Positions 27,229 through 62,256 of a stretch of 62,256 nucleotides of DNA are shown here, piece after piece. Location of the stretch: IMG/VR virus record IMGVR_UViG_3300035701_000029, positions 1 through 62,256 of that record, one strand, 5' to 3'. Within the stretch, counting starts at the first letter, position 1; each line of letters begins with the position of its first letter. Under the pieces are notes generated by a model that ran no database searches, had not been told where the DNA came from, and saw only the letters and a list, made by a program, of their open reading frames with translations. Source of the DNA: a virus. Taxonomy: Duplodnaviria > Caudoviricetes. A program made the position numbers and the translations under genes.

Positions 27229-28143
27229 TTAGTCGATATAGATGCGGAAGTTTCTCTCGGGGAACCACACTGCGCATCCAACCCTGGTCCACATATGAAT
27301 GTGCCAGATCAGAGCATCAATGTCAACTGCGTCCAAAGAATCAAGATTCTGTTGGACAACAAATTTCCCAGAGCCTCCACCCATAACCATAACATCTTGG
27401 TTAGTGATCGTGTTGCGTCCGTTTGCATCAACCCACTGCATGAGCGGAATTAACGGTACACCACGATATACACCGATAGCACCAGTACGTACGACCTGAT
27501 CCTTTACAGAATCAGAAAATACGCCGCTGTCTACGTTAGACACGCTGCCGAAATCCATAATGGCATTCAGCAAATGTCTGCGGGCAACGATAGCCTTAGC
27601 TCCGCCGCCAGCCTGGTCATTACACCAATTAAGAGCAAAATCAAGAGAGGCCTTAGTTAAAACGCCACCCGTATCATTTGCGTAATTGGGGCCTGCGCTG
27701 GTAATAGAACCAACCACAGTTGACCAAGTCTTAGCATTGATAGCTCCCAGAATAGCATCACGTGCCATCCCAGTTTGTTCAGCAATTGTGCCATAACGTC
27801 CAGCGCGAAGCTGGTTCAATTCATACTCCGGATGTGCAGAAAGCATTTCCGTACTCAACGTGAATACTTTCTGGAAGATAGCTGTACGCGGAGCATACGA
27901 ACCAGGCTCATGCCAGTAGACGCGCATCTTCGAAGGAAGCGTCCATTCTACGTTCGTTCCCAGAGGGATAAACTCTTTGTCTAGCAAGAATCCAGAAAGG
28001 TCACGTTGTTCAATGTCATTCTGCAACTTCTCGGTAATCTTCTTAGCCAAAGCCGCACGAAGCTTAGGATCATTGCTGTCAAATGCCTTAGACATTTCTT
28101 CAGCTAGAGCTTTTTGGACTTCAGCACTTGCAAAATTCTCCAT
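27229..28143 (-). CDS. Major capsid protein (HK97-like fold)
   Basis: 304 aa, 'GAIGVYRGVPLI' P-domain-like motif. Lies after protease, scaffold and decoration genes, followed by a hairpin. Confidence 0.8.
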   Translation of the reverse strand: MENFASAEVQKALAEEMSKAFDSNDPKLRAALAKKITEKLQNDIEQRDLSGFLLDKEFIPLGTNVEWTLPSKMRVYWHEPGSYAPRTAIFQKVFTLSTEMLSAHPEYELNQLRAGRYGTIAEQTGMARDAILGAINAKTWSTVVGSITSAGPNYANDTGGVLTKASLDFALNWCNDQAGGGAKAIVARRHLLNAIMDFGSVSNVDSGVFSDSVKDQVVRTGAIGVYRGVPLIPLMQWVDANGRNTITNQDVMVMGGGSGKFVVQQNLDSLDAVDIDALIWHIHMWTRVGCAVWFPERNFRIYID

Positions 28144-33517: not shown

Positions 33518-35107
33518 CTAGACCCAGAACCCAACACCAATTGGGTCTTCAATTTGCTGAGGGACCGTCAATATCTCGTTAACCCCCATATTGGCAAGCG
33601 CTAAGGCAGTAGCCCTATCCTTCTTTTTTCCTTGTGGAACTGTAAACTTAAAGAAATTGCCCATTGCTTCCGCCTGCAATAACATCAATTCTTGTTTCGT
33701 AGCGATTAAATCCCACCCTGCGCGCTCCAATCTACTATCTGGATGCCTTCTTATGTCTAGGGCAAATGAAAATCTAGTATGCTGCATGTCTGCCTTAAGA
33801 CTGCTATACATATGATTTACGGTAGGTTGAGTAAAGGGTATCATTCTAAGAGTACGCAATCCGTAAGCTTCCGGGGGAATGTTTTTATCATCCATATCGA
33901 ATATGGGAAGTGCTACTTCCCCAGTTGCAGGATGGCGCCAAGCCTCTGTAAGTAAGTCTTTAAAAGTTGTTCCTCCACCAGCAGGATCCATCATGATCCG
34001 TTTAGTCCCAGGGAACCGAAATAATGTCATTCTAATTTCTGATAACATTTGCTGATAAGTAGCGCCATTCATTGCTCTAGAATAAACAAGAGCCCGATTC
34101 ATTCCACCGGTCATTTTAAGCATCGCTATAGCAAAGTTATCTCCTCCCGCAATACGAGCAGAGTCAACCCCCATTACATATGTGCCTTCGGGATCTTCAA
34201 GCGCTATTTCTATCCCACCATCCCTCTTAGAAGAACAAGTTTCTATAAGTTTAGCAGGGAAGAATCCTTTAGTTTCAATTGGGAATATAGCCAGATTTTC
34301 CATAGCAAAAGCTTCTTCTGTCATATCAGCTTTTTGCATACGAAGAACATCTTCGGCTATCCTATATGGAGAATTTGGTATGCGAAGGATATCTTGGTAA
34401 TTATAATTATGAACCGCATATTTATCTGGTTGTCTTTCCTGCATTACGTTGTAAAGCAAGAATTGGATATATAGATGATTGAAGGCATAGTAGGCCGAAG
34501 AACTAATAATCATTTTGTTTGGCCGACCTTCATTTTGAATATTCATCATTGGGCGAAGAACTAGTTGGATGATCTCTTCGTCAAGCTGAGCGTATTCATC
34601 CGGAAGAAGTACATTATATCTGCGACCACGAACTTTATTTCCGTCACCTAATGGTAGGGCTTCCACAAAAGACCCATTGTTAAACCTGATTAATTCTTTT
34701 TGATATGTTCTATGTAGCCCCTTCCCCCTCGGAGAACTCTTTCTAACTGATGCTCTTAAAAAAGGAGACTTGTCATAAAACTCCTCAATGTAGTCAAACA
34801 CATACCCAGCTTGTCTAAACACCGGAGCAATGACTCCTATTTTAGTACCTGGCCACAACATAGCATACAAGACAGCAAACAAGGCTAACATCCATGTCTT
34901 ACCAACACCGCGACCTAAAACCATCATGACGTAGTTCTTAAAGAACATGTCATTAAGCATTTCGCGCTGAAGCCAAATTAAATCAACACCAATTATTTCT
35001 TTGGCTGCTATAACAGGGAAATTTCGATAATACCAAACTAACTGTTCATTAGCAGTTAATTTGTACTGTTCGGATTTTGTTAGCCTAGTTGCTATCTGAG
35101 TCTTCAC
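33518..35107 (-). CDS. terL: Terminase large subunit
   Basis: Walker A 'GRGVGKT', Walker B 'LLPDEY', 'ISSSA' motif III, nuclease 'MGVDSA' and 'KKDRATAL'. Confidence 0.95.
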   Translation of the reverse strand: MKTQIATRLTKSEQYKLTANEQLVWYYRNFPVIAAKEIIGVDLIWLQREMLNDMFFKNYVMMVLGRGVGKTWMLALFAVLYAMLWPGTKIGVIAPVFRQAGYVFDYIEEFYDKSPFLRASVRKSSPRGKGLHRTYQKELIRFNNGSFVEALPLGDGNKVRGRRYNVLLPDEYAQLDEEIIQLVLRPMMNIQNEGRPNKMIISSSAYYAFNHLYIQFLLYNVMQERQPDKYAVHNYNYQDILRIPNSPYRIAEDVLRMQKADMTEEAFAMENLAIFPIETKGFFPAKLIETCSSKRDGGIEIALEDPEGTYVMGVDSARIAGGDNFAIAMLKMTGGMNRALVYSRAMNGATYQQMLSEIRMTLFRFPGTKRIMMDPAGGGTTFKDLLTEAWRHPATGEVALPIFDMDDKNIPPEAYGLRTLRMIPFTQPTVNHMYSSLKADMQHTRFSFALDIRRHPDSRLERAGWDLIATKQELMLLQAEAMGNFFKFTVPQGKKKDRATALALANMGVNEILTVPQQIEDPIGVGFWV

Positions 35108-45258: not shown

Positions 45259-45877
45259 AATCAATCCTCCACTGAATATCATTGACGTTTGTTCTATCTG
45301 TATACGCCAATAAAACAGCATACTTTGCCCCACGAGGAGAGGGATGGTCACCGAAATCTATTTTATAGTAAGGATTTATCTTTTTTAGGTTTTCTATAAT
45401 TGTTTCTAAGCTAATGTCTTGCCAACACTTACCCTTAGCTTTCCATTCCGGGTTAGGAGCAACTCCAGCTTGGTTAATGTCGTCAATAAGAATGCTATGA
45501 GTTTTAATGGGATGGTTTCTAATCGCGGCTAGCTCTTCAATAATAGGAACTTCAACTCTACCCACAGTATACCCAGGTTCCCAGTGACCATCTAGCCAAA
45601 AAGTAATAGGTTTTTCAATTTTCTCAATTATCGACCATAAAACATCTGCACTATCCCCTAAATGCAAATGGACATTCTTATTTTCTTTATACCTCTCTTT
45701 AGCCATATCATAAAAATAAGAGTCTATTTCTATACTATGTATTTCCTTAAAGCCGCACTGCAAAGCCGTTAGTATCCCCTGCCCCTTAAAAGTGCCGGTT
45801 TCGATAAAGACATCATTACGGAATTGTAATAACAAATCCCATCTTAATGTGGTGTTTTCAAAAAATAAACTGGACAT
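45242..45877 (-). CDS. SAM-dependent methyltransferase-like protein
   Basis: 'FIETGTFKGQG', 'SIEID', 'GDSADVL', 'FWLDGH', 'ILIDD'. Confidence 0.75.
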   Translation of the reverse strand: MSSLFFENTTLRWDLLLQFRNDVFIETGTFKGQGILTALQCGFKEIHSIEIDSYFYDMAKERYKENKNVHLHLGDSADVLWSIIEKIEKPITFWLDGHWEPGYTVGRVEVPIIEELAAIRNHPIKTHSILIDDINQAGVAPNPEWKAKGKCWQDISLETIIENLKKINPYYKIDFGDHPSPRGAKYAVLLAYTDRTNVNDIQWRIDFEAIY

Positions 45878-46905
45878 TAAGAAGCCCCTTTCATTTTTAA
45901 GCACTCTTGGAATAAGGCTTCATATTGTTTACTAACAGCCTCTGGACTGTACAAGGCTTTAACCTTGTTTATTGCACCACGAGAAAAAATCTCGTATTCT
46001 TTTGGGTTGTTTATTAGAAAATGAACGGCACTTGCCAAATGAAACAATTCTTTTCTACAAATAATCCCTGCCCCTTGCGCTGCTTCTGGTCCAGCGCTAT
46101 CTTGCCATGTTATTATGGGAATACCTTGAGACATGGCTTCTACAATACAATATTCAAATCCCGCTTCCCATGTTGGGTTAATGCATATATCGAGTCTGTT
46201 AAGCGCGGCAAGTTTATCTTTTTGTTCTCCCTCTACAACAAAATAATTTGGTATTTCAACCTTTTTCATCTCTTCATAATATTGTCGGTTAAATTCATGC
46301 CCCATTAGTAAAAACTTAAGAAAATGCCGATATTCTGCCATAATTTTGGCTACCCCATATATAACATGGTGGAGCTTATCAATTTCATACCTAGCAAGCC
46401 TTCCTACAACAATCTGTCTGTGTTCTTCACTAGGGAATTGCCTTGGCTCTGCTATCGGCAATGTGCATATATTAGGGATAACTAAAACCTTCCTATCCTT
46501 ACTCTTGCTAGCGGTGTATTCACTTTGCCCAACCGTAAAAGCACACATATCTTTGGGAATATGAGAAGGTCTCGGGCAATGAAGATTTTCTATGACGGGA
46601 ATCTTTTTGACATAGGCTTCCGTTACCCAATTGGGATTATCTCCACCCCCCGTCTGCTTCACAATTATGTCGATTTTATGATAATTCAGAAGCGCGCTAA
46701 AACCTGGATAATTTTCATTCTCGGCTATAATGCTGTCGCAACCAGCAGCTTCAAATTCTTTTTTAATGTCGGTATCTAACCAACAGTACCCAATAGCATA
46801 ATGCTTATACTGTGGAGTAGTAGCCTTAACTAGTTCTAGGGTGGCTTGAGCTATGCCTCCAAGAGCCCACCCATTAATGACATGTAATATCCTTGGCCTA
46901 AACAA
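45877..46905 (-). CDS. Glycosyltransferase (GT4-like)
   Basis: 'ILHVINGWALGGI', 'VGRLAR', 'EAGFEYCIVEAMSQGIPII'. Likely TTG start at 46905. Confidence 0.9.
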   Translation of the reverse strand: MFRPRILHVINGWALGGIAQATLELVKATTPQYKHYAIGYCWLDTDIKKEFEAAGCDSIIAENENYPGFSALLNYHKIDIIVKQTGGGDNPNWVTEAYVKKIPVIENLHCPRPSHIPKDMCAFTVGQSEYTASKSKDRKVLVIPNICTLPIAEPRQFPSEEHRQIVVGRLARYEIDKLHHVIYGVAKIMAEYRHFLKFLLMGHEFNRQYYEEMKKVEIPNYFVVEGEQKDKLAALNRLDICINPTWEAGFEYCIVEAMSQGIPIITWQDSAGPEAAQGAGIICRKELFHLASAVHFLINNPKEYEIFSRGAINKVKALYSPEAVSKQYEALFQECLKMKGAS

Positions 46906-47917
46906 TGTTTTCCCTCCGTAAGAACTCATACAGTTCAAGCGCCCATCTTTCATTGCTCCTATACTTAGCACAAAAGTCCCGAGAACCTTCAGTATATATA
47001 TTAATAAATTGCGGCAATTCGAATATCATTTCAATCTTGCGGCTGAGATCATATACATTAAAAGGTTCTGCATATATGCCAAAATCTCCATATATGCGTC
47101 TAGCTTCTGGCCAATCTGCTGCTATGACCGGTTTTCCAATTGATATCCCCTCAAGACCACATTGAGATACAATCCTAGGGTTATCGGGGAAAGTAATAAT
47201 TGCAGAAGACTCATGGTAGTGCTTATATTTATCCATTTCTGAACAATTTGGTATTTGTTCGTAGGGGACCTTAAGAAATGAAGCAAGCGAACTCAAATCT
47301 GGTCCAACTCCCAAAACTAGAAGCTTAATTGAGGTGTCGGCCATTGAAATGGCCTCTAAGATCATATGCACCCCTTTATCTGGACGAACTATCCCCGAAT
47401 AACAAAGCTGTTTCTTAATTTGGAAATCTCTTGGGTTAAGATTGAGTGTGTTAACAGGGTGAAACAACGGACATGTAGGAATTGACAACCCCTGAAGCTC
47501 GTCTATATCAATTTTCTTCCATGAAGTCAAGAAATCTAAATAAGATAGTACTCCCCCATATTGCGACCACATTTTTTGAATATGTGGTAAGTAGTTTCTT
47601 GTTTTAGGGATAAAAGTATGGGAAGGTAAATCTAAGATGTTGCATCCAACTTTTTTTCCAGTGTGATCTTTGAGATGCAACAAAAGCGGAATTGCAGAAA
47701 TATCAAATCCAAAGAAAATATCATATTTTGAGATATCGGCTGTATCCGATGTTATAATATTCACTTTCGGTAGATCAATCTCAAACGGTATAGTTGGATT
47801 CCCCTCAAATAGGTAGGCTACATCTATGTCGAAGTATTCTTCTAGAGCCTTTGCTACTGGATAGACCTGCCCTGGAAAAGCAGCAAAAAACAAGCACATT
47901 TTTAACCGTTCGGCCAT
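46898..47917 (-). CDS. Glycosyltransferase (GT4-like)
   Basis: 'YSGIVRPDKGVH', 'GLEGISIGKPVIAAD'. Confidence 0.85.
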   Translation of the reverse strand: MAERLKMCLFFAAFPGQVYPVAKALEEYFDIDVAYLFEGNPTIPFEIDLPKVNIITSDTADISKYDIFFGFDISAIPLLLHLKDHTGKKVGCNILDLPSHTFIPKTRNYLPHIQKMWSQYGGVLSYLDFLTSWKKIDIDELQGLSIPTCPLFHPVNTLNLNPRDFQIKKQLCYSGIVRPDKGVHMILEAISMADTSIKLLVLGVGPDLSSLASFLKVPYEQIPNCSEMDKYKHYHESSAIITFPDNPRIVSQCGLEGISIGKPVIAADWPEARRIYGDFGIYAEPFNVYDLSRKIEMIFELPQFINIYTEGSRDFCAKYRSNERWALELYEFLRRENIV

Positions 47918-48984
47918 ATGATCTTCCTTAGTGATTGAACAAAAACTTGTTTGCTGTACCTGCTATTAAGAAACTCTTTCATTTCAACTATGTCTGTTTC
48001 AAATGTAAGAGCCTTCTTCATTTGGGCAGTAAATTCTTCGGGAGTCCTAGCAAACAGTATGTGTTTGTCTAGGTACATCTCTCTGTTAAGCGGATTATCC
48101 CATACTACTGAAGTCTTTCCACACCACATGCACTCAGCTATAGTTCCAGAGCCACAATATGACCCTCTTTCGCCAGAAATACCAAATTTAGCCCCAGCGA
48201 TAAAGTTATACTTCTCTGTTTCGGTTATCTCTGACAAGATTCTTAAAGTGATGCCATGTTTAGCTGCTAGATTCTTGCATTTTACTTCATCTGGGCCACT
48301 ACCTACAAAATATAGGTCTAGTTCATCTTTAAGGTCTTTGAACATCTCGATAATTTCAGCTTGGCCCTTATGTTCATTAATACTGGCACACGAAATAGCG
48401 TAGTCCCTAGCCCCCTTATATGGTTTTGTGGGTTCTTCAAAAAATACTGGGTAGAAGACTTTACCGACTGGCATCTTATTAAGGTAAAAATAACTATTGT
48501 AATAGGTAGGTGTCTTAACTGCTATAAGATCCCAGTTCCCCCTACTTAGCTCTCGTTTGATCGTATCCCAGCTAGCTATATAATCGGAATAGTAATGATG
48601 CTTGCCACTATAGTAGTCCATAGGGATATCTAACAACATTACGTACTTCCTAATATTATCTATCTTAGATGCTATGGCTCTATACACATTTTCAGCAGAA
48701 GTTAAAACTGTGTGGTCTGTCGCCAACAAAACAACGTCTTTACCCTTACATCTTTCTATAAGATCCGGACTAACTACTAAATTACCGCTCTGTGAATCTA
48801 TCCTATTAAAAATGATTTCATCAGAAAGGCTTTCTGATGTTTTTAATTTCCGAAAAGAAAGCCTCGCTGGGAAAAGACAAATAGGGACAGTTTCAATGTC
48901 CATTTGTTTTTTAATTTCTTCTGATACAAGAAGGACAAAGTGTTCGGTTATTTTTGTAACCAAGATAATTACTTTATTGGGCAT
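47902..48984 (-). CDS. Glycosyltransferase (GT4-like)
   Basis: 'EHKGQ', 'VGSGP', 'IAECMWCGK'. Confidence 0.8.
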   Translation of the reverse strand: MPNKVIILVTKITEHFVLLVSEEIKKQMDIETVPICLFPARLSFRKLKTSESLSDEIIFNRIDSQSGNLVVSPDLIERCKGKDVVLLATDHTVLTSAENVYRAIASKIDNIRKYVMLLDIPMDYYSGKHHYYSDYIASWDTIKRELSRGNWDLIAVKTPTYYNSYFYLNKMPVGKVFYPVFFEEPTKPYKGARDYAISCASINEHKGQAEIIEMFKDLKDELDLYFVGSGPDEVKCKNLAAKHGITLRILSEITETEKYNFIAGAKFGISGERGSYCGSGTIAECMWCGKTSVVWDNPLNREMYLDKHILFARTPEEFTAQMKKALTFETDIVEMKEFLNSRYSKQVFVQSLRKIIWPNG

Positions 48985-50059
48985 CGTTGACTACCTTGCA
49001 AATTAAGTTAATATGCTCTTTTGTTAGAGAAATTGAAGATGGTAAACAAATGGTACGTTGGAATAAAGATATTGCATTTCCTTGACCAACTGTTTGTAGA
49101 TGTTTAGTAAACGGCAAGCTACTCATCGGTTTAAAAATGTACCTATAATCAATAAGATTGAGATCAAGTGCCCTCATAGCATCATCTCTTTTGTGCTTAT
49201 TAGGAAAAGTAAATGCATTTAACCAAAAATTAGGCTTTGCTCCAAGGACATGGGCCTGTGGATATGCTGGCGGGTTGATCCCTATCTCGTAAGACTTTCT
49301 GATTGTTGTTTTGTACTGTAGGAAGAATTCAATCTTTTTCAACTGTGAACGCCCCAGCGCTGCGGACATATGAGTCATTCTGTAGTTATACCCAGCTTTT
49401 GCATGATCGTATTCTTTACCACCTGGATAATGACTGACTAAATTGTACGCCTCTTCGTACTGCCAATCTGGGACAACTAAAGCTCCGCCTTCACCCGTAG
49501 TAATGATCTTATTAGCGAAAAAACTGAAAACCCCGTAGTCTCCCCTTGTCCCACAAAATCTTCCTCTAGCATCTTTGCTTCCAAGAGACTCGGCTGCATC
49601 TTCAATGACCACAATGTTCTTAGATTTGACATACTGTTCGAAATTGTCCGAAAATTCAAATGGTGTGCCAAGCAAATCCACAGTAATAATATGAGAAATA
49701 TCTTTGTCTTTGAGATATTGCCAATTCATATTCCAATCAGAACTAGTAATATCACAAAGAACAATCTTGTTTGTTTCTTGGAACAAAGCATTAAGAGTTG
49801 CAGCAAAAGTTATATCTGGAATTGCAACATATTCGGCGTTTCTAACTCCCGACAGAACATAGGCGATATGAAGAGCGGCACTACCGCTCGAAGTTAAAAC
49901 AATTCGTTTGTTAAGCTGCGCAAGACCTAAATAGTCTTCCAGATCGTGAGCAAATCGTACATACTCTGGCCCATGATGCGAAACCCATCCCATTTTCAAC
50001 CCATCGGACACTGCTTTAACATCTTGTTCTGTAATACAGGGCTCTAGTACTTTAATCAT
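48974..50059 (-). CDS. DegT/DnrJ/EryC1/StrS PLP-dependent sugar aminotransferase (perosamine synthase-like)
   Basis: 'SSGSAALH', 'IEDAAESLG', 'SFFANKIITTGEGG', 'GYNYRM', 'CLPSS'. Confidence 0.95.
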   Translation of the reverse strand: MIKVLEPCITEQDVKAVSDGLKMGWVSHHGPEYVRFAHDLEDYLGLAQLNKRIVLTSSGSAALHIAYVLSGVRNAEYVAIPDITFAATLNALFQETNKIVLCDITSSDWNMNWQYLKDKDISHIITVDLLGTPFEFSDNFEQYVKSKNIVVIEDAAESLGSKDARGRFCGTRGDYGVFSFFANKIITTGEGGALVVPDWQYEEAYNLVSHYPGGKEYDHAKAGYNYRMTHMSAALGRSQLKKIEFFLQYKTTIRKSYEIGINPPAYPQAHVLGAKPNFWLNAFTFPNKHKRDDAMRALDLNLIDYRYIFKPMSSLPFTKHLQTVGQGNAISLFQRTICLPSSISLTKEHINLICKVVNDAQ

Positions 50060-51132
50060 ACATACTCCTCAAAAATTTTAGTGAGTCTTTCGCCACTTGC
50101 CCTGGGGGAGAAATAATCGTCTACTCTTTTGTGCGCCCTGCGCCTTAAAGAAAAAAGATCAACCTCTCTATTAAGAACTTGAAGTATTTTAGCCTGTAGG
50201 TCTTCTACATCTTTAGGTTTTGCGTATATGGCACAATCCTCGTATTCTTCTCTATTGATAGGATAATCAAACACAACTGCCGGAACTCCCAAGGCCATAG
50301 CTTCTAGGGGAGCAATGGCTCCCATCCATGGGTTACATTGTGGGTAGCAAAGTAGCCTAGAGTTTTTAACAATTTCATGTTTCTTAAGTTCTGGCGCTTT
50401 GGGGAAATATTCAAATCGTTTGCCCAAATAAGATTTTGCTAAAGCTACTTGTTCCGCTTCCTGAGATCCACCAACTGCTACTGCTTTATAGCCAATATCA
50501 ATTCCATATAGGGCTTCTATTAAGTATCGACCCCCCTTAAATTCTTCAAACCTATGAGAAGAAGAGACATATGGCTCAACATCAACCATCTCCGAATTAT
50601 TTATTTTGTAAATCATGTCTAAAGTAGCAACTACGAAGAAAGACTTCTTAGCTGGCTTCTGAGTTCTCTTAGTATATTCTTCGGCAGCAACCGAACTAAT
50701 AAAAATCAAACTATCTAACTCTTCTCCAATTTTTAAATACCTATAAAACCTGTTAGAATAGTCTTGATTGTAGTTTGGTTGGCCTGGATCAATAACATGA
50801 ACTGGAAAATCTAAGAAAATACAAAATGCTGGAACTCCATAAAATTTTTTAAGTGACGCAACATATGGCACAACAGATTGATCTATTCCAATGATAACAT
50901 CTGGTTTTTCTATAGACTCGGGAATAGTAGTATAGACCCCATGAGGAACTTTTATAATGTCTTCGCTAATTAAGGGAGCTGGTATCCACCCGTTACAAAA
51001 AATTCCATGATCTATATCGTGAAGAATCTTCACTTCATGGCCCACTTCTTTTAACCCAGAAGCAATTGCTAATTCCTGATGGCCAACAAATAAAGTGCCG
51101 TTAGCTATGCACAGAACTTTCATTACACACAT
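50056..51132 (-). CDS. Glycosyltransferase (GT4-like), paralogue of 51101..52183
   Basis: 'LEAMALGVPAVVFD'; shares 'HQEL.IA.GLK..G.EV' and 'G.DQSV' with its neighbour. Confidence 0.85.
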   Translation of the reverse strand: MCVMKVLCIANGTLFVGHQELAIASGLKEVGHEVKILHDIDHGIFCNGWIPAPLISEDIIKVPHGVYTTIPESIEKPDVIIGIDQSVVPYVASLKKFYGVPAFCIFLDFPVHVIDPGQPNYNQDYSNRFYRYLKIGEELDSLIFISSVAAEEYTKRTQKPAKKSFFVVATLDMIYKINNSEMVDVEPYVSSSHRFEEFKGGRYLIEALYGIDIGYKAVAVGGSQEAEQVALAKSYLGKRFEYFPKAPELKKHEIVKNSRLLCYPQCNPWMGAIAPLEAMALGVPAVVFDYPINREEYEDCAIYAKPKDVEDLQAKILQVLNREVDLFSLRRRAHKRVDDYFSPRASGERLTKIFEEYV

Positions 51133-52183
51133 GCTCCAAAATTTGAGTTAGCGCTTTTCCTGCTTGTTCTGGTGTAAACATCAATTGAACCCGTTCTTTG
51201 CCCCTAGCCTTTAGGGTTTCGAGATCAATTTCTTTGTTTAACACCAATAAAAGCTTTTCTTGTAAGTCGTCTATATTTTTAGGGGCTGTATATACAACAG
51301 AGTCACCAAAAAACTCTTTGTACAAAGGGAAGTCAGAGCAAACTACAGGAGTCCCCATATACAAGGCCTCAAGAACAGCCATCCCCCCTGACCATCCACA
51401 TAAATTGGGGTAGCAAAGAACTTTCGCACTTTTCAATAATCTCCACTTATTAGCTTCTGCAAGTTTTGGATATGGGTGGAATTTATCCGCAAGCATTCTT
51501 TGAGCAAACGCTATAACTTGGGGCTCAATAAACCCCCCTGCAAAAGCAGCGCAATAGTCTACCATCATTTCACTAAGAGCTTTAATAAGGTACTCTGTTC
51601 CATTGTAGCTAAAGAATTTATGAGTAGAAGCTATATAGGGAACGTCAATATCGAATTTTTTACCATCAATTGCATTTGTTGTGCAAAGAGGGTAGTAAAA
51701 ATAGTATGGGGGCTTGCGCAAGTTATTAGCAGCCCTAAGCGCCATGGTTTTACTGGTGAAAATTATACCTCCACTCATTTCGTTTGCGTAATTAATGGCG
51801 GTGTAGTAGTTAGCTGAATATTCTGGATCATAGTCCTGCGGAGACCCCTCATCAATCATATGACGTGGATAATCAAGCATAATGCAACTAGCAGGGCAAT
51901 GATACTCGCTCTCATATGCCCTAGTCAAAGCAGACACACTCTGGTCTAGCCCCAAACAGCAATCTACCCCCTTAATCCCCTTCTCAACTTCGAAATCTCC
52001 CGGCTTTTTAATTATGATCTCTTTAGATAAGAGAGGAGGGGGGATGTATCCCTTGTTAAATTCGCTACATTGTGGGTCATGAAGAATAACCACTTCGTTT
52101 CCAGCTTGCTTAAGCCCCGCTGCTATATGCAACTCTTGATGGGCCATTGATAAAAACCCATTACCAATTAATAGTACCTTCAT
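51101..52183 (-). CDS. Glycosyltransferase (GT4-like), paralogue of 50056..51132
   Basis: 'VLEALYMGTPVVCSD'. Confidence 0.85.
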   Translation of the reverse strand: MKVLLIGNGFLSMAHQELHIAAGLKQAGNEVVILHDPQCSEFNKGYIPPPLLSKEIIIKKPGDFEVEKGIKGVDCCLGLDQSVSALTRAYESEYHCPASCIMLDYPRHMIDEGSPQDYDPEYSANYYTAINYANEMSGGIIFTSKTMALRAANNLRKPPYYFYYPLCTTNAIDGKKFDIDVPYIASTHKFFSYNGTEYLIKALSEMMVDYCAAFAGGFIEPQVIAFAQRMLADKFHPYPKLAEANKWRLLKSAKVLCYPNLCGWSGGMAVLEALYMGTPVVCSDFPLYKEFFGDSVVYTAPKNIDDLQEKLLLVLNKEIDLETLKARGKERVQLMFTPEQAGKALTQILEHVCNESSVHS

Positions 52184-52404
52184 TTATCCACCCAAACAAT
52201 TCCCGAAAAGAACAACCATTCTATGTCTGATCTTTTAAGCTTTACCTTGCGGTTATCGGCGAAGTATAGAAAACATTCTAGGCAGAGTTTTTTTTCAACT
52301 AGGCTGGCCGGAACAGACATGGCCCAAATAATATCGTTGATCTTATAGCTTGCTCTCCTGATTTTCTTGCAATAGCTACAGCGTTTTTCCATATTCTCAT
52401 CCAC
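52180..52404 (-). CDS. Small Cys-rich (Zn-binding) protein
   Basis: CSYC...LCLEC. Confidence 0.6.
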   Translation of the reverse strand: MDENMEKRCSYCKKIRRASYKINDIIWAMSVPASLVEKKLCLECFLYFADNRKVKLKRSDIEWLFFSGIVWVDK

Positions 52405-53363
52405 TAGGTTAGCTCCATGTGTTTAAAAATCTTTTCAAAGCTATGCTTAAAGGTAAAAGAAGATAAGACCGTGTTCATTCCCCTATCTGCAATCTTTTTC
52501 CTAAGATCCGGTTTGTCTCGGTAAAACTCTATTTTATCGGCACACTCTTCGTTAGAACTATATAGAATGATATTCCTTCCGTCTTGAAAGAAATCTGTAT
52601 GGCCCTTAATTCTGTTGGTTATTAAGAACCCACCAGCAGCCATAATTCTATAGTCCCTAGCGCTCCAAGAGTATTTAATATTTGGCCATCCGCTATGTCC
52701 AAGGTTTATAATGGAATTAGCAGAGACTACGTTGTTGCCCCAATTGCCAGTAATGCTTTCTCCAACGTGTCGGCCTTTCAGATCAACTGTCCCATAGATT
52801 TTTCCATAAATTTTAATAAGATCATCAAACTTTTCAACCAAGTACTTTAGCCAATCTGCCCTATCTAGGTGAACAAACCCTCTTTGTTTATACCATTGAG
52901 AATCTTCTACTATTTGGCCAACAAAAGTACACCCATAGTAGTTATTAGTCTTAATTGGATAGTGAGACCACGGATCGCAGCCTTCTGGAACCCAGTAACC
53001 TTTAGGAAAAGCCTTGGCGTGATCTGGGGAGATGGTGAAAAAGTAGTCTAGCTTATCTAACCCTGGGCGTAGAGAACTTACTGGAACTTCTACGCCGCCA
53101 AATGTAACATCGAAGATCCAACCGCATTTTATGGGGCACTCTATCCAATCAATGAAGTGTTCTAACTCATTAAGATATAGAATAAGACAAACATCTGGCT
53201 TTATTGTATTGATAAAATCTACGGTTCGCTCAATTGAATGATTCCGATGATCGGAGAATGAAAAATCTATTTCTAGGGCGTGTTCTCTGGCAAATTCATG
53301 TAGTCCGTTACGTAAAAAAATGTTAGACTGCCCATCATTGGGCATAGACAAATGAACTTTCAT
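52404..53363 (-). CDS. CgeB-like glycosyltransferase (GT-B)
   Basis: 'TFVG', 'WSARDYRIMAAGGFLIT', 'RKKIADRG' pattern of CgeB / glycosyl transferase group 1-like proteins. Confidence 0.8.
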   Translation of the reverse strand: MKVHLSMPNDGQSNIFLRNGLHEFAREHALEIDFSFSDHRNHSIERTVDFINTIKPDVCLILYLNELEHFIDWIECPIKCGWIFDVTFGGVEVPVSSLRPGLDKLDYFFTISPDHAKAFPKGYWVPEGCDPWSHYPIKTNNYYGCTFVGQIVEDSQWYKQRGFVHLDRADWLKYLVEKFDDLIKIYGKIYGTVDLKGRHVGESITGNWGNNVVSANSIINLGHSGWPNIKYSWSARDYRIMAAGGFLITNRIKGHTDFFQDGRNIILYSSNEECADKIEFYRDKPDLRKKIADRGMNTVLSSFTFKHSFEKIFKHMELT

Positions 53364-55530: not shown

Positions 55531-55809
55531 TCACTGGTTAAAGTACTCCATAACGTCTCCGGACCTATGTATAAGAACTTGGCCTCCTGACGGAAAGTTC
55601 CCTGATCTAATATATATCTGTATCAACTCTTGCTCATACAGAAGTTTGAAGCGTTCAAGCTCTGACTGTGTGATAAAGATTTGTCTGCGATTGTTGTACT
55701 TGACTGCAAGTTCAGCAATAAACGACAGCACAGACAGCTTAACTTTGATGTTTGTAAACTTGGCTAGTTCCTCGGTAGTAGCATGAGCGAGTTTTCTAAA
55801 CCCCTTCAA
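55531..55809 (-). CDS. Hypothetical protein
   Basis: 92 aa with GGAG SD. Confidence 0.55.
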   Translation of the reverse strand: MKGFRKLAHATTEELAKFTNIKVKLSVLSFIAELAVKYNNRRQIFITQSELERFKLLYEQELIQIYIRSGNFPSGGQVLIHRSGDVMEYFNQ

Positions 55810-57319: not shown

Positions 57320-58231
57320 TTACCATTCCATCACTACGCTTGCAGAAGTCCATCCGGCCCCAACACCAGTAAGTAAGATTTTATCCCCTTCTACAATTCT
57401 CTGTTTGTCAAGAGCATCATTAAGGGCTATTGGAATACAAGCAGAACTTGTATTGGCATACCTATCCATAACAGTGTGAATTTTTTCAAACGGAATGCCC
57501 AAAGCTTTCGCGGCGTCTTTAAGCACTCCAATCCCAGGTTGATGAGGAATGACTAAATCAATATCATCTGCGGTCAAGTTTGCTCTTCTTAGACATTCAG
57601 TAGCACTCGCATAGATATGTTCCACTGCGAGTTGATAAACCCACTTCCCCTTCATGTGCCAAAAGTTATCTTTTTCGATAGTCCAAGCTTCGGCTCCGCT
57701 CCCATCTGATGCCCAATGTGTTGCTAGAATACCTCTACCATTAGATAAGACAACTGCTCCTGCTCCATCACCGAAGAAAACGCAGTTCCTATCTCCCCAA
57801 TCGGTATATTTAGATAGTGTATCTGCTCCGACCACTAAAATATTCCTATACCGTTTGCTCTCCATCATCTCACAAGAAGCGACTAGGGCATAGATAAAAC
57901 TAGCACACACCGCAGTCATATCAAACGCTGGTGGTCCGTTAAGCCCCAATGCGTCTTGAATGTAACAAGCTGTTGCAGGAGCACGTTTATCTGGGGTTGT
58001 CGTTCCAACAATAATTAAATCAATTTCGGTAGCCTTTGCTTCTATGATCGCTTTTGCCGCTGCGTTAAGAGCAAGGCTTCGAGTAGTTTCTTCCACACAA
58101 ATATGACGAGACTTGATGTTTAAAGTCTTCGCCGCCCAAGGAGGGTCAACATAGTGACCCAATTCTTTCAATTGCTCGTTAGAAACACTCCAAGCGGGGA
58201 CACACATCCCAACTCCCATGATTTTAGGCAT
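57320..58231 (-). CDS. fabH: Beta-ketoacyl-ACP synthase III (FabH family)
   Basis: Catalytic triad motifs 'AVCASF', 'IPHQ', 'ANTSSACIP'; also 'FGDGAGAVV' and 'GVGAGWT'. Confidence 0.93.
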   Translation of the reverse strand: MPKIMGVGMCVPAWSVSNEQLKELGHYVDPPWAAKTLNIKSRHICVEETTRSLALNAAAKAIIEAKATEIDLIIVGTTTPDKRAPATACYIQDALGLNGPPAFDMTAVCASFIYALVASCEMMESKRYRNILVVGADTLSKYTDWGDRNCVFFGDGAGAVVLSNGRGILATHWASDGSGAEAWTIEKDNFWHMKGKWVYQLAVEHIYASATECLRRANLTADDIDLVIPHQPGIGVLKDAAKALGIPFEKIHTVMDRYANTSSACIPIALNDALDKQRIVEGDKILLTGVGAGWTSASVVMEW

Positions 58232-58558: not shown

Positions 58559-58736
58559 TGTCAGCTAATAAACATTCTAGTCCGCAAGTACACCTCCCAC
58601 AGCCACAAACCAGAGAATCTCTAGAATGACAATATCTATTGTGCTCTAAATATTCTCTGGCTTTGCTGAGGAGAAGTCTTAGTTCGTTCTCGTTCTTACT
58701 CACGCTCTCAATAAGTGTACTTTCCTTTGCTCCCAT
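58515..58736 (-). CDS. Small Cys-rich hypothetical protein
   Basis: 'H...CH...CGCGRCTCGL'. Confidence 0.55.
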   Translation of the reverse strand: MGAKESTLIESVSKNENELRLLLSKAREYLEHNRYCHSRDSLVCGCGRCTCGLECLLADIEFRLGRFGVNKKR

Positions 58737-59364
58737 TGATAAATCCAGGAGCGCTAGTAGAAATTATTCCGGCTTGGTAAACAGCACTAACCGCAAACTC
58801 TCCAGTCCCCCTATAAGTAGAAACAGAATTATCCACAGCTTCCCATAGTCTTGTCGTATGAATAGGGCTAGCAATATATCCAAAGCTATGTCGAATGCCA
58901 ATCATTGAGCCTTCTTTGATCGCATCCTGATTCGCGCCAAGATATACAAACTCCCACTTCAAGTCTTCAGCAGACTCATTAACCAAATCTAAAATTTGCT
59001 TCTTGGTGAATTTTCTAGAAGCGTTCTCTTCTCCATCAGTGATAATGACAAACACCACTTGGTCGATCTTCCTACGTTGTTTCAACAGACGATGTTTCGT
59101 TTTTCCGATGGTATCTCCAATAGCGTCTAAAAGCGGAGTGCCCCCTCTGGGCTCTAAAACTAAAGCAGGCACGCTCTTCACCGATAGCCCCTCATACACA
59201 GTATCAATTCCAACAGAATCGAATTGAACTAGTGTTAGACTGGCTCTCCCCGGCAATTTCTTCTGTCCTCGGACGAAAGTATTAAACCCCCCAATAGTGT
59301 CTTTCTTCACACCCTCCATAGACCCTGACCGATCAAGGAGGACGACAATCTCAGTGTTTTTCAT
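58708..59364 (-). CDS. von Willebrand factor A domain protein
   Basis: MIDAS 'LLDRSGSM', 'GGTPLLDAIG', 'IITDGEENAS'. Likely start MKNTEI at 59364 after GAGGAG. Confidence 0.9.
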   Translation of the reverse strand: MKNTEIVVLLDRSGSMEGVKKDTIGGFNTFVRGQKKLPGRASLTLVQFDSVGIDTVYEGLSVKSVPALVLEPRGGTPLLDAIGDTIGKTKHRLLKQRRKIDQVVFVIITDGEENASRKFTKKQILDLVNESAEDLKWEFVYLGANQDAIKEGSMIGIRHSFGYIASPIHTTRLWEAVDNSVSTYRGTGEFAVSAVYQAGIISTSAPGFINGSKGKYTY

Positions 59365-59376
59365 GGTTTCTCCTCT

Positions 59377-59398
59377 CATTGAAGAATATTCTTCAATG
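59377..59398. promoter_or_regulatory. Perfect 22-bp palindrome (operator or leader hairpin) upstream of the vWA RBS
   Basis: CATTGAAGAAT|ATTCTTCAATG; a minus-strand TATAAT lies just upstream (59419-59424). Confidence 0.6.
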
Positions 59399-59760
59399 GC
59401 TCTGTTAGAGCTTATTACATTATACGGCAAGGAGGAGCATTTTGTAAGATTTCCGTGCATGAATCACCTAGACGTTACCTTTTCTAGCTCCTGGGAAAAA
59501 TTTACCCAAGTAGGGTTAAATCCTAGACCCGAAATTGGGGATGACTAAGACACTCTCTACTGACTCGTTCGCTAACTCATTGTCTAGCAATAACGTAGTA
59601 TCTATTGTTCTAGAAATCTGTTGAGAGAAGCTGAGCTTTTCGCTCTGCTGAAGCTGAAAGTAGCTGTGAGCTTTACGAATACTCTATACTGCACATATGA
59701 GCAGATTGAAAGTAGTTTCTCAAGCAATACTGCACATTTGAACAGTATGCGAAAAAGCTG

Positions 59761-59789
59761 TTGACTCATGTGCTTCTGTTGTCGATAAT
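59761..59789 (+). promoter_or_regulatory. Sigma70-type promoter inside the GG/CC-free island
   Basis: TTGACT-17 nt-GATAAT, ~85 nt upstream of the ATG at 59874. Confidence 0.7.
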
Positions 59790-59873
59790 GAGAGCAGAAG
59801 CAGAGAAGAGCAAGACGATAATGCACTCACTCATCTTGCTCACAATTCGAGAGTGCAGAGAAGAGCAAAGCAA

Positions 59874-60428
59874 ATGTCAAAGAAGCAAGCTGTAGAAGAG
59901 AAGCAAGTCGAACGCAAGAGCGTTTCGACGAAAGAGAATGCAGACGTTAGCAGATTAACTGCTTTCGTCGATTCTCTGAGCAGTGTCAAGTCTGCTGCTG
60001 CTGCTGTTGAGCAGTGCAGCAGTGAGCAAGAGATGTATCTGCTTGCTCTCGCAATAGTGCGAGAGAAATTGAGTGAGCGTTTTACATTCACTCAATTCGC
60101 TTCTGCTGTTAACGAAAGCGAAAAATGCAAAAAGCTTTCACTCACTGCTTATCTGTACAAGCAGAGAAAAGCAGCGAACGTGCTTTCGCTTCGTGAAAGC
60201 ACTCACTCTATCTGTGCAGACAGAGTCTTGCACAGAGAGAGAGTCGCACAGATTCACAAGTCTGCAAAGACTAGTAACAGCTTTTCAACAGTGCATGTCG
60301 CTTCTGCTTTGCTTGACAGAGCAAAGCACGAAACAGACAATCAAGCAAGAGCAAGAGAAGTGTTTCACTCACTCAACAGTAATGCGATTAGCTTGCTTGA
60401 ATCTATCGTCAAGATAGTGAGCAAGTAA
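59874..60428 (+). CDS. Early protein lacking Gly, Pro and Trp (184 aa); probable paralogue of 61866..62256
   Basis: ATG at 59874 (MSKKQAVEEK...), promoter upstream, terminator downstream, colinear motif matches to the 61866 ORF. Confidence 0.8.
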   Translation: MSKKQAVEEKQVERKSVSTKENADVSRLTAFVDSLSSVKSAAAAVEQCSSEQEMYLLALAIVREKLSERFTFTQFASAVNESEKCKKLSLTAYLYKQRKAANVLSLRESTHSICADRVLHRERVAQIHKSAKTSNSFSTVHVASALLDRAKHETDNQARAREVFHSLNSNAISLLESIVKIVSK

Positions 60429-60436
60429 TTCAACAG

Positions 60437-60469
60437 AGAGAGAGCAGCAGAAATGTTGCTCTCTCTTTT
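60437..60469 (+). terminator. Intrinsic terminator built without GG/CC
   Basis: agagagagcagca-GAAA-tgttgctctctct followed by TTT. Confidence 0.8.
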
Positions 60470-60498
60470 CTAATCACTCAATTGAAAGAGAGAAGCAA

Positions 60499-60699
60499 AT
60501 GACAGACAGAGAAGCGACAATTGAAGCTCTTGACAGAGCAATCAACAGAAATGACAGAGAAGCAGTGTATCAGCTTGTGCAATTGCTCAACAGACAGACA
60601 GAGCAAGAGCTAAGAGAGAAAGACAGATTCACGAATATCATACTCTTTGCTTGTGCTTGCGAATTAGCTGCTTGTCTGCTGCTTGTGCTATTCGCATAA
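60499..60699 (+). CDS. Small protein with C-terminal membrane anchor, lacking Gly/Pro/Trp (66 aa)
   Basis: Purine-rich GAAAGAGAG RBS; C-terminal hydrophobic segment; followed by hairpin agcactc-GAAA-gagtgct (60703-60720). Confidence 0.65.
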   Translation: MTDREATIEALDRAINRNDREAVYQLVQLLNRQTEQELREKDRFTNIILFACACELAACLLLVLFA

Positions 60700-61033
60700 G
60701 AGAGCACTCGAAAGAGTGCTTGAGTAGAAAGCCTGAACCTGACCTTAATGTGATGACTGTACATCGACAGCCACATCCAGACCAGAACAAGCTTACGAAT
60801 ACTCATGCCTTACCGCTCTTATAAAGAAGTCTCCTGATCCATCATCTTATAGTCTTGTTACTCTTGTCTGGCTATGTCTTATTACGAATACCTATTAAGC
60901 TTGGGGTTTTGTTCTGGTGTGCTAATCTGAGCCTGAGCCCATAGAGTAAGAATGCATTGTATAGAGAGTACTGTGTGTTGGTAGTTTCGCCGAAACCGCT
61001 GTTAAACAATAACCTGTAGTGTTCGGAGGTAGT

Positions 61034-61312
61034 ATGTTGGAAATGGCAATCTGTGCGGATTGTGGTAGATCATGTCGTCTTGATATGATGACCACTCGTC
61101 TTTCACCACTCACTGATGACCCTACTAATGAAGCCTTAGCAGTCAGGCAGTTTGTGTGCGACTCCTGTGCTGACTGGTTTCATCACTTCGGCAACAGTAA
61201 GAGGGGTGAGTGTCACAAGTGTGGAGATAGTATGTGGAAGAAGCATGCGGTTCATGTAGCGGACGATGCATGGGGCTCGTTCGTATGCGGTCTGTGTAAG
61301 GAGGTAGTATGA
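61034..61312 (+). CDS. Cys-rich Zn-finger protein
   Basis: GGAGGT SD then ATG at 61034; four CxxC pairs. Confidence 0.7.
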   Translation: MLEMAICADCGRSCRLDMMTTRLSPLTDDPTNEALAVRQFVCDSCADWFHHFGNSKRGECHKCGDSMWKKHAVHVADDAWGSFVCGLCKEVV

Positions 61313-61467
61313 CGTGCGACAAATGCGGTGGGCCTCTAGATGAACAGAGCCACACGTTCATCGAGGACAATGTGCTCTACACCTCAGAAGTCAATATATG
61401 CCGGAAGTGTATCGACGGCATAGATCGGCTTATCAAATCAATCTTCAGCCAACAGAAAGGAGGTTAA
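61309..61467 (+). CDS. Small Zn-finger protein (52 aa; not in ORF track)
   Basis: AAGGAGGT SD, ATGA overlap; MTCDKCGG...ICRKCIDG... Confidence 0.65.
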   Translation: MTCDKCGGPLDEQSHTFIEDNVLYTSEVNICRKCIDGIDRLIKSIFSQQKGG

Positions 61468-61468
61468 T

Positions 61469-61555
61469 ATGGGGCGTCAATCGTGGTTATACATACTGTT
61501 GATCTGGTTGAACTTAGCGGCTAAGTATATCGCGCTTCGTGACCTAATCCAGTGA
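61469..61555 (+). CDS. Small hydrophobic peptide (28 aa; not in ORF track)
   Basis: AAAGGAGGT SD; MGRQSWLYILLIWLNLAAKYIALRDLIQ. Confidence 0.5.
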   Translation: MGRQSWLYILLIWLNLAAKYIALRDLIQ

Positions 61556-61772
61556 CACGGGCTCGTTACGCCTGAGCCTGACCACAACCTTTCCACAAGG
61601 GGGCAGCCATATCTAGTCCTGGACCGCTAGATCAACTGCCCTTCATTATAGTAGAGTAGTCTCTAGTCACCAGATTACGAATACGCCGCATTAAGGGAGG
61701 TTTGATACGATCTGGATCTAATTCCGGAACCACATTAAGAAGAAAGGAGGTTAACGCCACACAAAAAACCAC

Positions 61773-61802
61773 TTGACAAAGTTAAAGGACATGAGCTATC
61801 TT
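61773..61802 (+). promoter_or_regulatory. Sigma70-type promoter
   Basis: TTGACA-18 nt-TATCTT with an upstream A-tract. Confidence 0.7.
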
Positions 61803-61865
61803 GTACTCATGTTCGAGGAACAAAACGTCAACGCTGCTAAGGCAGCACACAAAAGGAGCTTTACA

Positions 61866-62256
61866 ATGTCTAACAAGAAGAACACCACCGAGAACGCGGT
61901 TGTCAAGACTGCGAAGGCTGAGAAGATCGAGAAGAAGCCTGTTGTCGTGGCCCCCGAAGCGAAAGCGGACATGGCTCAGTTGAAAGCAGTGTGTGAGGCC
62001 ATCGTGTCACGCGACAAGGGTGCTCGTCTCTCGGAGTCGGAGATGCTCGTCGCATCAGCGGCGATGAATCTCGACAGGTGGGGAACGAACGTCACGAAGG
62101 AGCAGATGCTCAAGGACGTGAACGAACGATGTGCTTTCGGTGCGTACTACTACAGGGACGCGGCGGAAGACAGAAAGGGCACGTTCAATCTCTATCGTGG
62201 CGTGCATCGGGACGTGTGTGCACATGACGGGAGCAAACTGGGACGTGGCACAAACG
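61866..62256 (+). CDS. Early protein (runs off window; not in ORF track); probable paralogue of 59874..60428
   Basis: AAAGGAG SD, ATG at 61866; MSNKKNTTENAVVK...ADMAQLKAVCEAI...SESEML...VNERC...AYYYR...HRDVCA; open to the window end. Confidence 0.8.
   Translation, partial: MSNKKNTTENAVVKTAKAEKIEKKPVVVAPEAKADMAQLKAVCEAIVSRDKGARLSESEMLVASAAMNLDRWGTNVTKEQMLKDVNERCAFGAYYYRDAAEDRKGTFNLYRGVHRDVCAHDGSKLGRGTN

Follow-up and report, generated by a model that had tools for sequence, protein, structure and literature searches.

Can a phage rid a stretch of its DNA of one dinucleotide step altogether and, if so, what becomes of the protein encoded there? The question arises from the virus record IMGVR_UViG_3300035701_000029 (Caudoviricetes), the whole of which (62,256 nt; completeness estimate ~33%) was analysed and is called the window here. 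An earlier note had drawn attention to a gene near the end of the window, gene A, said to encode no Gly, Pro or Trp and to lie in DNA free of GG and CC, and had proposed that it is a recoded paralogue of an ordinary gene 2 kb downstream, gene B. The first of these statements was borne out, since protein A uses exactly 17 amino acids, with Gly, Pro and Trp absent, and gene A contains no GG or CC.

Gene A is part of a longer run that lacks GG and CC on either strand. The flanking GG/CC steps lie at 59539 and 60732, and the 1193 nt between them are free of both, whereas the runner-up gap in the 62-kb window measures 161 nt. No GG/CC is observed in the run, as against a mean of 111.5 and a minimum of 85 in 1000 composition-preserving shuffles, while the rest of the phage shows no depletion (observed/expected 1.13-1.15). 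The run comprises ~335 nt 5' of gene A, gene A itself, a terminator hairpin, a second open reading frame (ORF), termed ORF2, and a second, weaker hairpin. The fold of the gene A terminator (-23.9 kcal/mol, z -5.4) was equalled by none of 200 shuffles. ORF2 has no paralogue among 942 ORFs and belongs to no known family; it has a start region in common with gene A, AAGAG-N6-GCAAATG, which is Shine-Dalgarno-like without GG. The 161-nt gap (55601-55762) is placed inside an AT-rich minus-strand ORF (55531-55809) and was taken as unrelated; it exceeds the length expected from the GG/CC density of the genome and is otherwise featureless.

The constraint acts on the DNA rather than on the protein: besides synonymous sites, it extends over ~440 non-coding nt. 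Rewriting protein A with the codon usage of the phage gave a mean of 22.4 GG/CC (minimum 7 in 2000 trials), and permuting the synonymous codons of gene A gave 14.9 ± 2.8, with zero reached in none of 2000 permutations. For ORF2, the same permutation predicted 4.7 GG/CC against the 0 observed, and zero was reached in 2 of 2000. With every GG:CC step removed, Gly (GGN), Pro (CCN) and Trp (TGG) are necessarily lost, and 17 amino acids are left; in seven other proteins of this phage these three residues amount to 8.0%, 3.8% and 1.3%, respectively.

Comparison of related sequences indicates that the GG/CC-free constraint is maintained across strain variants and in a 71%-identical homologue. A metagenome scan returned a single relative, L002, a 4165-nt contig that starts inside the run. 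Within the run, 11 positions distinguish it from the window, and its positions 1-1091 are still free of GG/CC; 6 nt differences fall in gene A and cause 1 amino acid (aa) change. For the stretches of the run that hold the terminator and ORF2, divergent variants are found on contigs from other samples. Among the variants listed inside the run, 20 substitutions (11 giving G or C) and 10 indels, none creates GG or CC; these were read by eye, a further 40 and 6 entries lie beyond those listed, and some contigs have a depth below 5. Homologues of protein A were P0001 (99% identity) and P0002 (71%, 187 aa), the latter the sole more distant homologue found; L002 encodes a 99% identical protein. P0002 is also without Gly, Pro or Trp, for which hand arithmetic gives a chance of ~3 in 10,000 (~57 differing residues, 13% background).

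These data bear on whether the run could be an unselected mutational scar, left for example by a context-specific deaminase converting CC/GG on both strands. AG/CT and GA/TC are enriched in the run (observed/expected 1.64, 1.69, 1.33 and 1.33), as C-to-T changes at CC would give. However, such a process would have turned TGG into stop codons, and both ORFs are intact, with the one amino acid change over six nucleotide differences noted above for gene A. The property is kept at 71% protein identity and across strain variants, and the edges of the run match those of a functional cassette, from promoter to terminator. We consider a scar very improbable.

Gene B was compared with gene A as its proposed unconstrained counterpart. 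As had been stated for the downstream copy, it uses Gly, Pro and Trp (9, 2 and 1 residues, respectively), contains 49 GG/CC and is preceded by a Shine-Dalgarno sequence, AAAAGGAG, at 61851-61858, 7 nt 5' of the ATG. The complete gene, encoding 178 aa, was read from the near-identical contig L002 (2258-2794). An exhaustive search of 1.84 billion representatives with a 130-aa part of B returned P0003 (67%, 187 aa) and P0004, and a profile search added P0006 (178 aa), so that the family is very small. P0004 (2140 aa), which matches only the Lys/Ala-rich N-terminal part of B and offers no informative domain, was judged uninformative. The GC content of gene B is 0.56 and that of its third codon positions (GC3) 0.72, unusually high against a GC3 of 0.35-0.45 in structural genes. 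Its 49 GG/CC compare with 87 predicted from composition; at codon junctions the depletion (49 against 56.0 ± 3.0, 23 of 2000) was lost after correction for 12 genes.

Similarity between A and B is colinear over the full length and weak, with an identity of ~22-25% and BLASTP E values of 2e-4 and 3e-4. When 224 stop-to-stop ORFs of the window were searched with a profile of B, A was the top non-self match (E 4e-4, next 0.19), and a three-member B profile found A at E 0.0064 (next 0.37; HMMER, 228-sequence database). B is without the compositional bias of A, and once biased matches are set aside each of the two genes has the other as its top match within the 224 ORFs. In local profile-profile comparisons with two B members, none of 600 column shuffles attained the observed score; with three members, a single column shuffle in 1500 did so, as did one in 800 when blocks of 8 columns were shuffled. 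Semi-global profile alignment gave a score of 49.2, against 11.8 ± 5.0 (maximum 41.0) in 1000 column shuffles, none of which reached it, and 8.5 for the reversed control. The members of the B family scored 70.5, 71.0 and 65.0, compared with a mean of 14.1 and a maximum of 53.5 for 86 real segments of 150-180 aa from this phage's own proteins, which places the full-length colinear similarity of A and B above both the shuffled and the real-protein controls.

The semi-global alignment spans the shared MS-K start to a C-terminal L-x-x-[IY][VA]-x-[IA], and 25 of its 163 aligned columns are identical in all five sequences. Identical columns occur in the blocks best conserved within each family, D-x-x-x-L, SE-x-E, V-N, AY-x-Y and R-x-x-H-R-[ED]-x-x-A...H...K. 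The blocks that had been aligned by hand in the earlier note were recovered in the same register by BLASTP, hhalign and HMMER, except for the final one (HSICA/HRDVCA), where MAFFT and the semi-global alignment favour RVLHRERVAQIH against RGVHRDVCA--H. If A had been recoded, a particular pattern of Gly, Trp and Pro replacement is predicted, and the prediction holds. Ser, which makes up 14.7% of A, stands opposite six of the nine Gly-majority columns of B, the remaining three being Ala, Val and Thr in A; the invariant Trp of B is opposite Leu (TTG) and the invariant Pro opposite Thr (ACG), each one base off. Six Gly-Ser pairs were found in none of 500 column shuffles, though the shuffled alignments cover fewer Gly columns. 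All five proteins of the two families are of similar length (178-187 aa) and isoelectric point (pI 9.5-9.7).

The resemblance may alternatively be a matter of chance between unrelated early proteins of like size, both small, basic and probably helical, the matched blocks arising from shared composition (helices rich in Ala, Ser, Lys, Glu and Leu) and from the picking of the best pair by eye. Several results weaken the case for kinship and are what chance would give. The hhalign P values were 0.0042, 0.0037 and 0.0027, yet the probabilities reported by the same program were 8, 9 and 11%. No BLASTP alignment of A with P0003 was obtained at E<=100, P0002 and P0003 reached only E 0.029, and B was not listed when A was compared with the 224 window ORFs by BLASTP; P0002 in the same comparison had B first, at E 0.43. 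Searching with a profile of A placed B (E 0.04-0.16) below an antisense ORF from the same GG/CC-free DNA (E 0.002), and composition alone can therefore yield E ~0.002. The B profile gave A 13.9 bits before P0006 was included and 10.2 bits afterwards, and it barely detected P0002 (E 2.8). For four cross-family pairs, 4, 5, 5 and 78 of 2000 Smith-Waterman shuffles reached the observed score. The reversed control of the local test was fairly high (33-38 against 42-54 observed), the full-length test was run at a single gap setting of our own choice (8/1), and one real phage segment attained the 53.5 given above. Models of A and P0003 from the ESM Atlas are poor (predicted local distance difference test, pLDDT, 0.53 and 0.50) and point to no common fold.

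On the other hand, chance accounts poorly for a full-length score that no shuffle reaches and whose reversed control is at background, for B members that each outscore all 86 real segments, and for the mutual best match in the window. The identical columns are residues invariant in both families, the Gly to Ser, Trp to Leu and Pro to Thr replacements fit recoding, and length, pI and the architecture of the transcription units are alike. A and P0003 also share their nearest named clusters in the ESM Atlas, Closter_coat and DUF3102, a lead only, with scores of 0.89 and 0.82 that are below lead level; hmmscan against Pfam gave no DUF3102 match for A (E<=0.1) or for P0002, B or P0003 (E<=1), and the L002 version of B has no Atlas entry. 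We conclude that chance is an unlikely explanation and that A and B are probably distant paralogues of one family, present as a 17-amino-acid and an unconstrained version as the earlier note had supposed. This paralogy is unproven, because the standard profile tools stay under their usual confidence.

The two genes also resemble each other in what surrounds them. Each unit consists of TTACGAATAC, 88 or 98 nt, a promoter pattern, 85 or 64 nt, the gene and a strong terminator, that of gene B being an 11-bp GC-rich stem with a T tract at 2801-2827 of L002. The earlier claim that each gene has a sigma70-type promoter of its own holds to the extent that a pattern with 10 of 12 matches precedes each; with 4 such sites, the region shows no excess over shuffles (3.4 ± 1.7). 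The four copies of TTACGAATAC in the window share the plus strand and are confined to its final 2.6 kb, the first 59 kb having none. L002 has six, at 33, 1153, 1242, 2067 and 2866 (plus strand) and 3264 (minus strand), a number reached in none of 200 shuffles. Copies 1 and 2, which extend to the 12-mer TTACGAATACTC, bracket the GG/CC-free cassette. One TTACGAATAC precedes each early transcription unit, and the flanks of the motif are not conserved. The motif was rejected as a replacement for a -35 or -10 element, its distance to a -10-like hexamer not being fixed across the six copies; it is probably the site of a regulatory protein or a phage-specific promoter element.

What, then, could the purged cassette be for? 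No family above threshold was found for A, ORF2, B or two Cys-rich ORFs between A and B in Pfam, PHROGs or NCBIfam, and A and B had no match among PDB sequences. Neither an Aca-type helix-turn-helix neighbour nor a described anti-CRISPR family turned up in the same three libraries, which include none dedicated to anti-CRISPRs. A and B are both basic, with a Lys-rich N-terminal tail of ~30 residues, and this tail together with a pI of ~9.5 suggests nucleic-acid binding. The exclusion of GG and CC is symmetric on both strands, which points to recognition of double-stranded DNA and not of RNA or protein.

Under our proposal, a single early, basic protein of ~180 aa would exist in two copies, A and B, each in a small transcription unit of its own (TTACGAATAC, ~90-100 nt, sigma70-like promoter, gene and terminator). 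The cassette of A and the small ORF2 would have been purged of every GG:CC step, with A recoded into 17 amino acids, and its DNA would be invisible to GG/CC-dependent defences, that is, CRISPR-Cas types with a CC/GG protospacer adjacent motif (PAM) and restriction enzymes whose sites contain GG or CC. Host RNA polymerase could then express A as soon as infection begins, even where the host is well defended, and the ordinary copy B would supply the same protein afterwards. CC/GG is the PAM of several CRISPR-Cas types, type I-F among them, and GG/CC is part of many restriction sites. The run has fewer defence targets than the rest of the genome, as would a first-injected region. It contains no GATC (expected 4.9), GCGC (5.3) or CGCG (2.0), although the five 4-mer palindromes examined were selected post hoc with the counts already in view. 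Palindromes of 6 bp without GG/CC number 9 against 23.6 ± 4.4, the second lowest count among 52 genome windows.

That A and B are paralogous and that A is carried on defence-target-free DNA for first expression is, to us, close to an even call, leaning slightly towards doubt. The fuller proposition, that immune pressure on the DNA rewrote a protein into a 17-letter alphabet in which it is still functional and conserved, with the duplicate early gene on GG:CC-purged DNA, is more tentative. Several considerations speak against such a purpose. Outside the cassette GG/CC shows no depletion, so that the phage stays targetable there. Placement of the cassette at the entering end of the genome is an assumption, the assembled contigs of public runs showing no molecule ends, and so are the order of entry, the early timing of expression and the presence of GG/CC-dependent defences in the host. 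Typical inhibitors are small and acidic, and A and B, basic and of ~180 aa, are unlike them.

Alternatively, A and B may be paralogous and the GG/CC-free state may serve not to evade host recognition but to suit the chemistry of the phage itself. Virion DNA might bear a bulky modification in GG/CC context that the host RNA polymerase cannot read, or a phage nuclease might cut at GG/CC; in either version the cassette alone would be unmodified or uncut and transcribed at once, and its product would enable use of the remaining genome. An absolute exclusion (0 of ~111) fits harm from a single site better than it fits probabilistic escape, and normal GG/CC elsewhere is expected if modification protects the rest. 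A DNA hypermodification pathway could include the glycosyltransferase-family ORFs at 45.9-53.4 kb, of which there are at least three, together with a FabH-like gene; GT1-type enzymes and FabH are, however, more typical of polysaccharide or lipid synthesis. No base-exchange, hydroxymethylase or DNA glycosyltransferase family was recognised in the window, a third of the genome. Moreover, host-type promoter patterns are also present for gene B and the zinc-ribbon ORFs, within DNA that contains GG/CC, and the loss of GATC, GCGC, CGCG and 6-bp palindromes is not predicted by a GG/CC-specific modification. We regard this alternative as rather unlikely.

Escape from host defences through a target-free first-expressed cassette would have parallels in known systems. 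In T5/BF23, protective pre-early genes are expressed from the first-transferred segment, and restriction sites inside it matter (PMC10644984). The likeness lies in a short stretch with host-type promoters, which in T5/BF23 is expressed first and protects the rest. Injection in two steps, a leading genome end and a terminal repeat would be suppositions for the present locus; here a dinucleotide is avoided rather than specific 6-bp sites, and a reduced amino-acid alphabet is forced. No sequence similarity to T5-like phages was found. In Murciavirus (Autographiviridae), it is enough for escape that the first-injected region lacks a Type I motif (PMC12455610), so that the target is missing locally and present elsewhere in the genome, which mirrors the cassette-only exclusion described here. 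That case concerns one Type I motif and an injection order established by experiment; here every GG:CC step is missing over 1.19 kb, and any injection order would be an assumption.

CC/GG is the PAM of type I-F (PMC12174588), and a preprint reports that host spacers fall preferentially on anti-CRISPR genes and at early positions (bioRxiv 10.64898/2026.10.15.759504). The PAM depletion reported for phage genomes is genome-wide and partial, while the one seen here is total and local, and A is only a candidate for an anti-CRISPR role. In conjugative plasmids, anti-defence genes that are expressed promptly lie in the leading region, which enters first (PMC11541004), and PMC13478746 asks if target depletion shapes that region. 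Plasmid entry is single-stranded, and the accessible text of those accounts mentions neither dinucleotide-free DNA nor a recoded paralogue. Motif avoidance in early or leading DNA is already known. Full-text literature searches, with most subscription journals and supplements outside their scope, found no GG/CC-free phage segment and no such recoded paralogue; the total removal of a dinucleotide step over a cassette, and a 17-letter protein beside an ordinary paralogue, are apparently new.

If the proposal is true, escape from DNA-targeting defences could dictate the amino-acid alphabet of a protein, and A and B would form a natural before-and-after pair in which the fold tolerates the loss of all Gly, Pro and Trp, Gly being replaced mostly by Ser, Trp by Leu and Pro by Thr. 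Long runs free of a single dinucleotide, where they adjoin a strand switch and a host-type promoter, could then mark first-expressed and possibly anti-defence genes in uncultivated phages. Target-free first-strike cassettes could be a general marker, detectable in sequence, of the earliest phage genes and of new anti-defence proteins, and the missing CC/GG would hint at the defences dominant in the sediment host.

Table 1. Features of the window discussed in the text, with positions in the window
Feature	Position	Strand	Remarks
DNA run without GG or CC, either strand	59540..60732	.	promoter region, two ORFs, untranslated regions, two hairpins
TTACGAATAC, copy 1	59673..59682	+	exact 10-mer; 88 nt before gene A -35
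Sigma70-like pattern 5' of gene A	59761..59789	+	TTGACT-17-GATAAT; 10/12 matches; pattern only
Gene A	59874..60428	+	184 aa, pI 9.5, Lys-rich N-terminal tail, no Gly/Pro/Trp
Intrinsic-terminator-like hairpin after gene A	60435..60468	+	15-bp stem, then UUUUCU
ORF2	60499..60699	+	66 aa, acidic, hydrophobic Cys-containing C-terminal tail, free of GG/CC
TTACGAATAC, copy 2	60793..60802	+	61 nt past end of GG/CC-free run
TTACGAATAC, copy 3	60882..60891	+	before zinc-ribbon-like ORFs
Two small Cys-rich (CxxC) ORFs between A and B	61034..61467	+	ordinary DNA; sub-threshold zinc-ribbon matches only
TTACGAATAC, copy 4	61675..61684	+	98 nt before gene B -35
Sigma70-like pattern 5' of gene B	61773..61802	+	TTGACA-18-TATCTT; 10/12 matches; pattern only
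Gene B, cut by window end	61866..62256	+	pI 9.55; Gly, Pro, Trp and GG/CC present
Tape-measure-like	7365-13766	-	
Major head protein	27229-28143	-	
Large terminase	33518-35107	-	

The cassette lies at a switch of coding strand. A minus-strand block takes up nearly the whole window, and plus-strand transcription begins at ~59.5 kb (Table 1). In addition to the structural genes tabulated, the minus-strand block encodes a portal, ribonucleotide reductase, a sliding clamp and an HD protein. The terminase has just 31% identity to terminases of ~80-kb Bacillus siphophages. Cultured phages gave no DNA match to the last 5 kb and no protein match to genes A or B, no relatives were found among the viral and genome contigs searched, and Rfam had no match near threshold in 59000-62256. 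DNA of the window is present in sediment metagenomes from 12 studies, with at least half of the sampled words in 7 of the 12; the runs matched were all DNA runs, with no RNA run among them.

A series of minus-strand ORFs at 45877-53363, each of 320-364 aa, includes matches to glycosyltransferase families (GT1-type) for three of the four scanned, and a gene for a FabH-like 3-oxoacyl-ACP synthase III lies near them (57320-58231, minus strand). This glycosyltransferase/FabH cargo is unusual for a phage and could serve glycosylation of a surface, of the capsid or of DNA. The final minus-strand gene before the strand switch encodes a VWA-domain protein (58708-59460; PHROG 7371, E 1e-52), and its upstream region overlaps the left part of the GG/CC-free run. 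The small Cys-rich ORFs between A and B are likely to encode zinc-ribbon early proteins, and a further small Cys-rich (CxxC...CxxC) ORF region follows gene B at 2943-3194 of L002.

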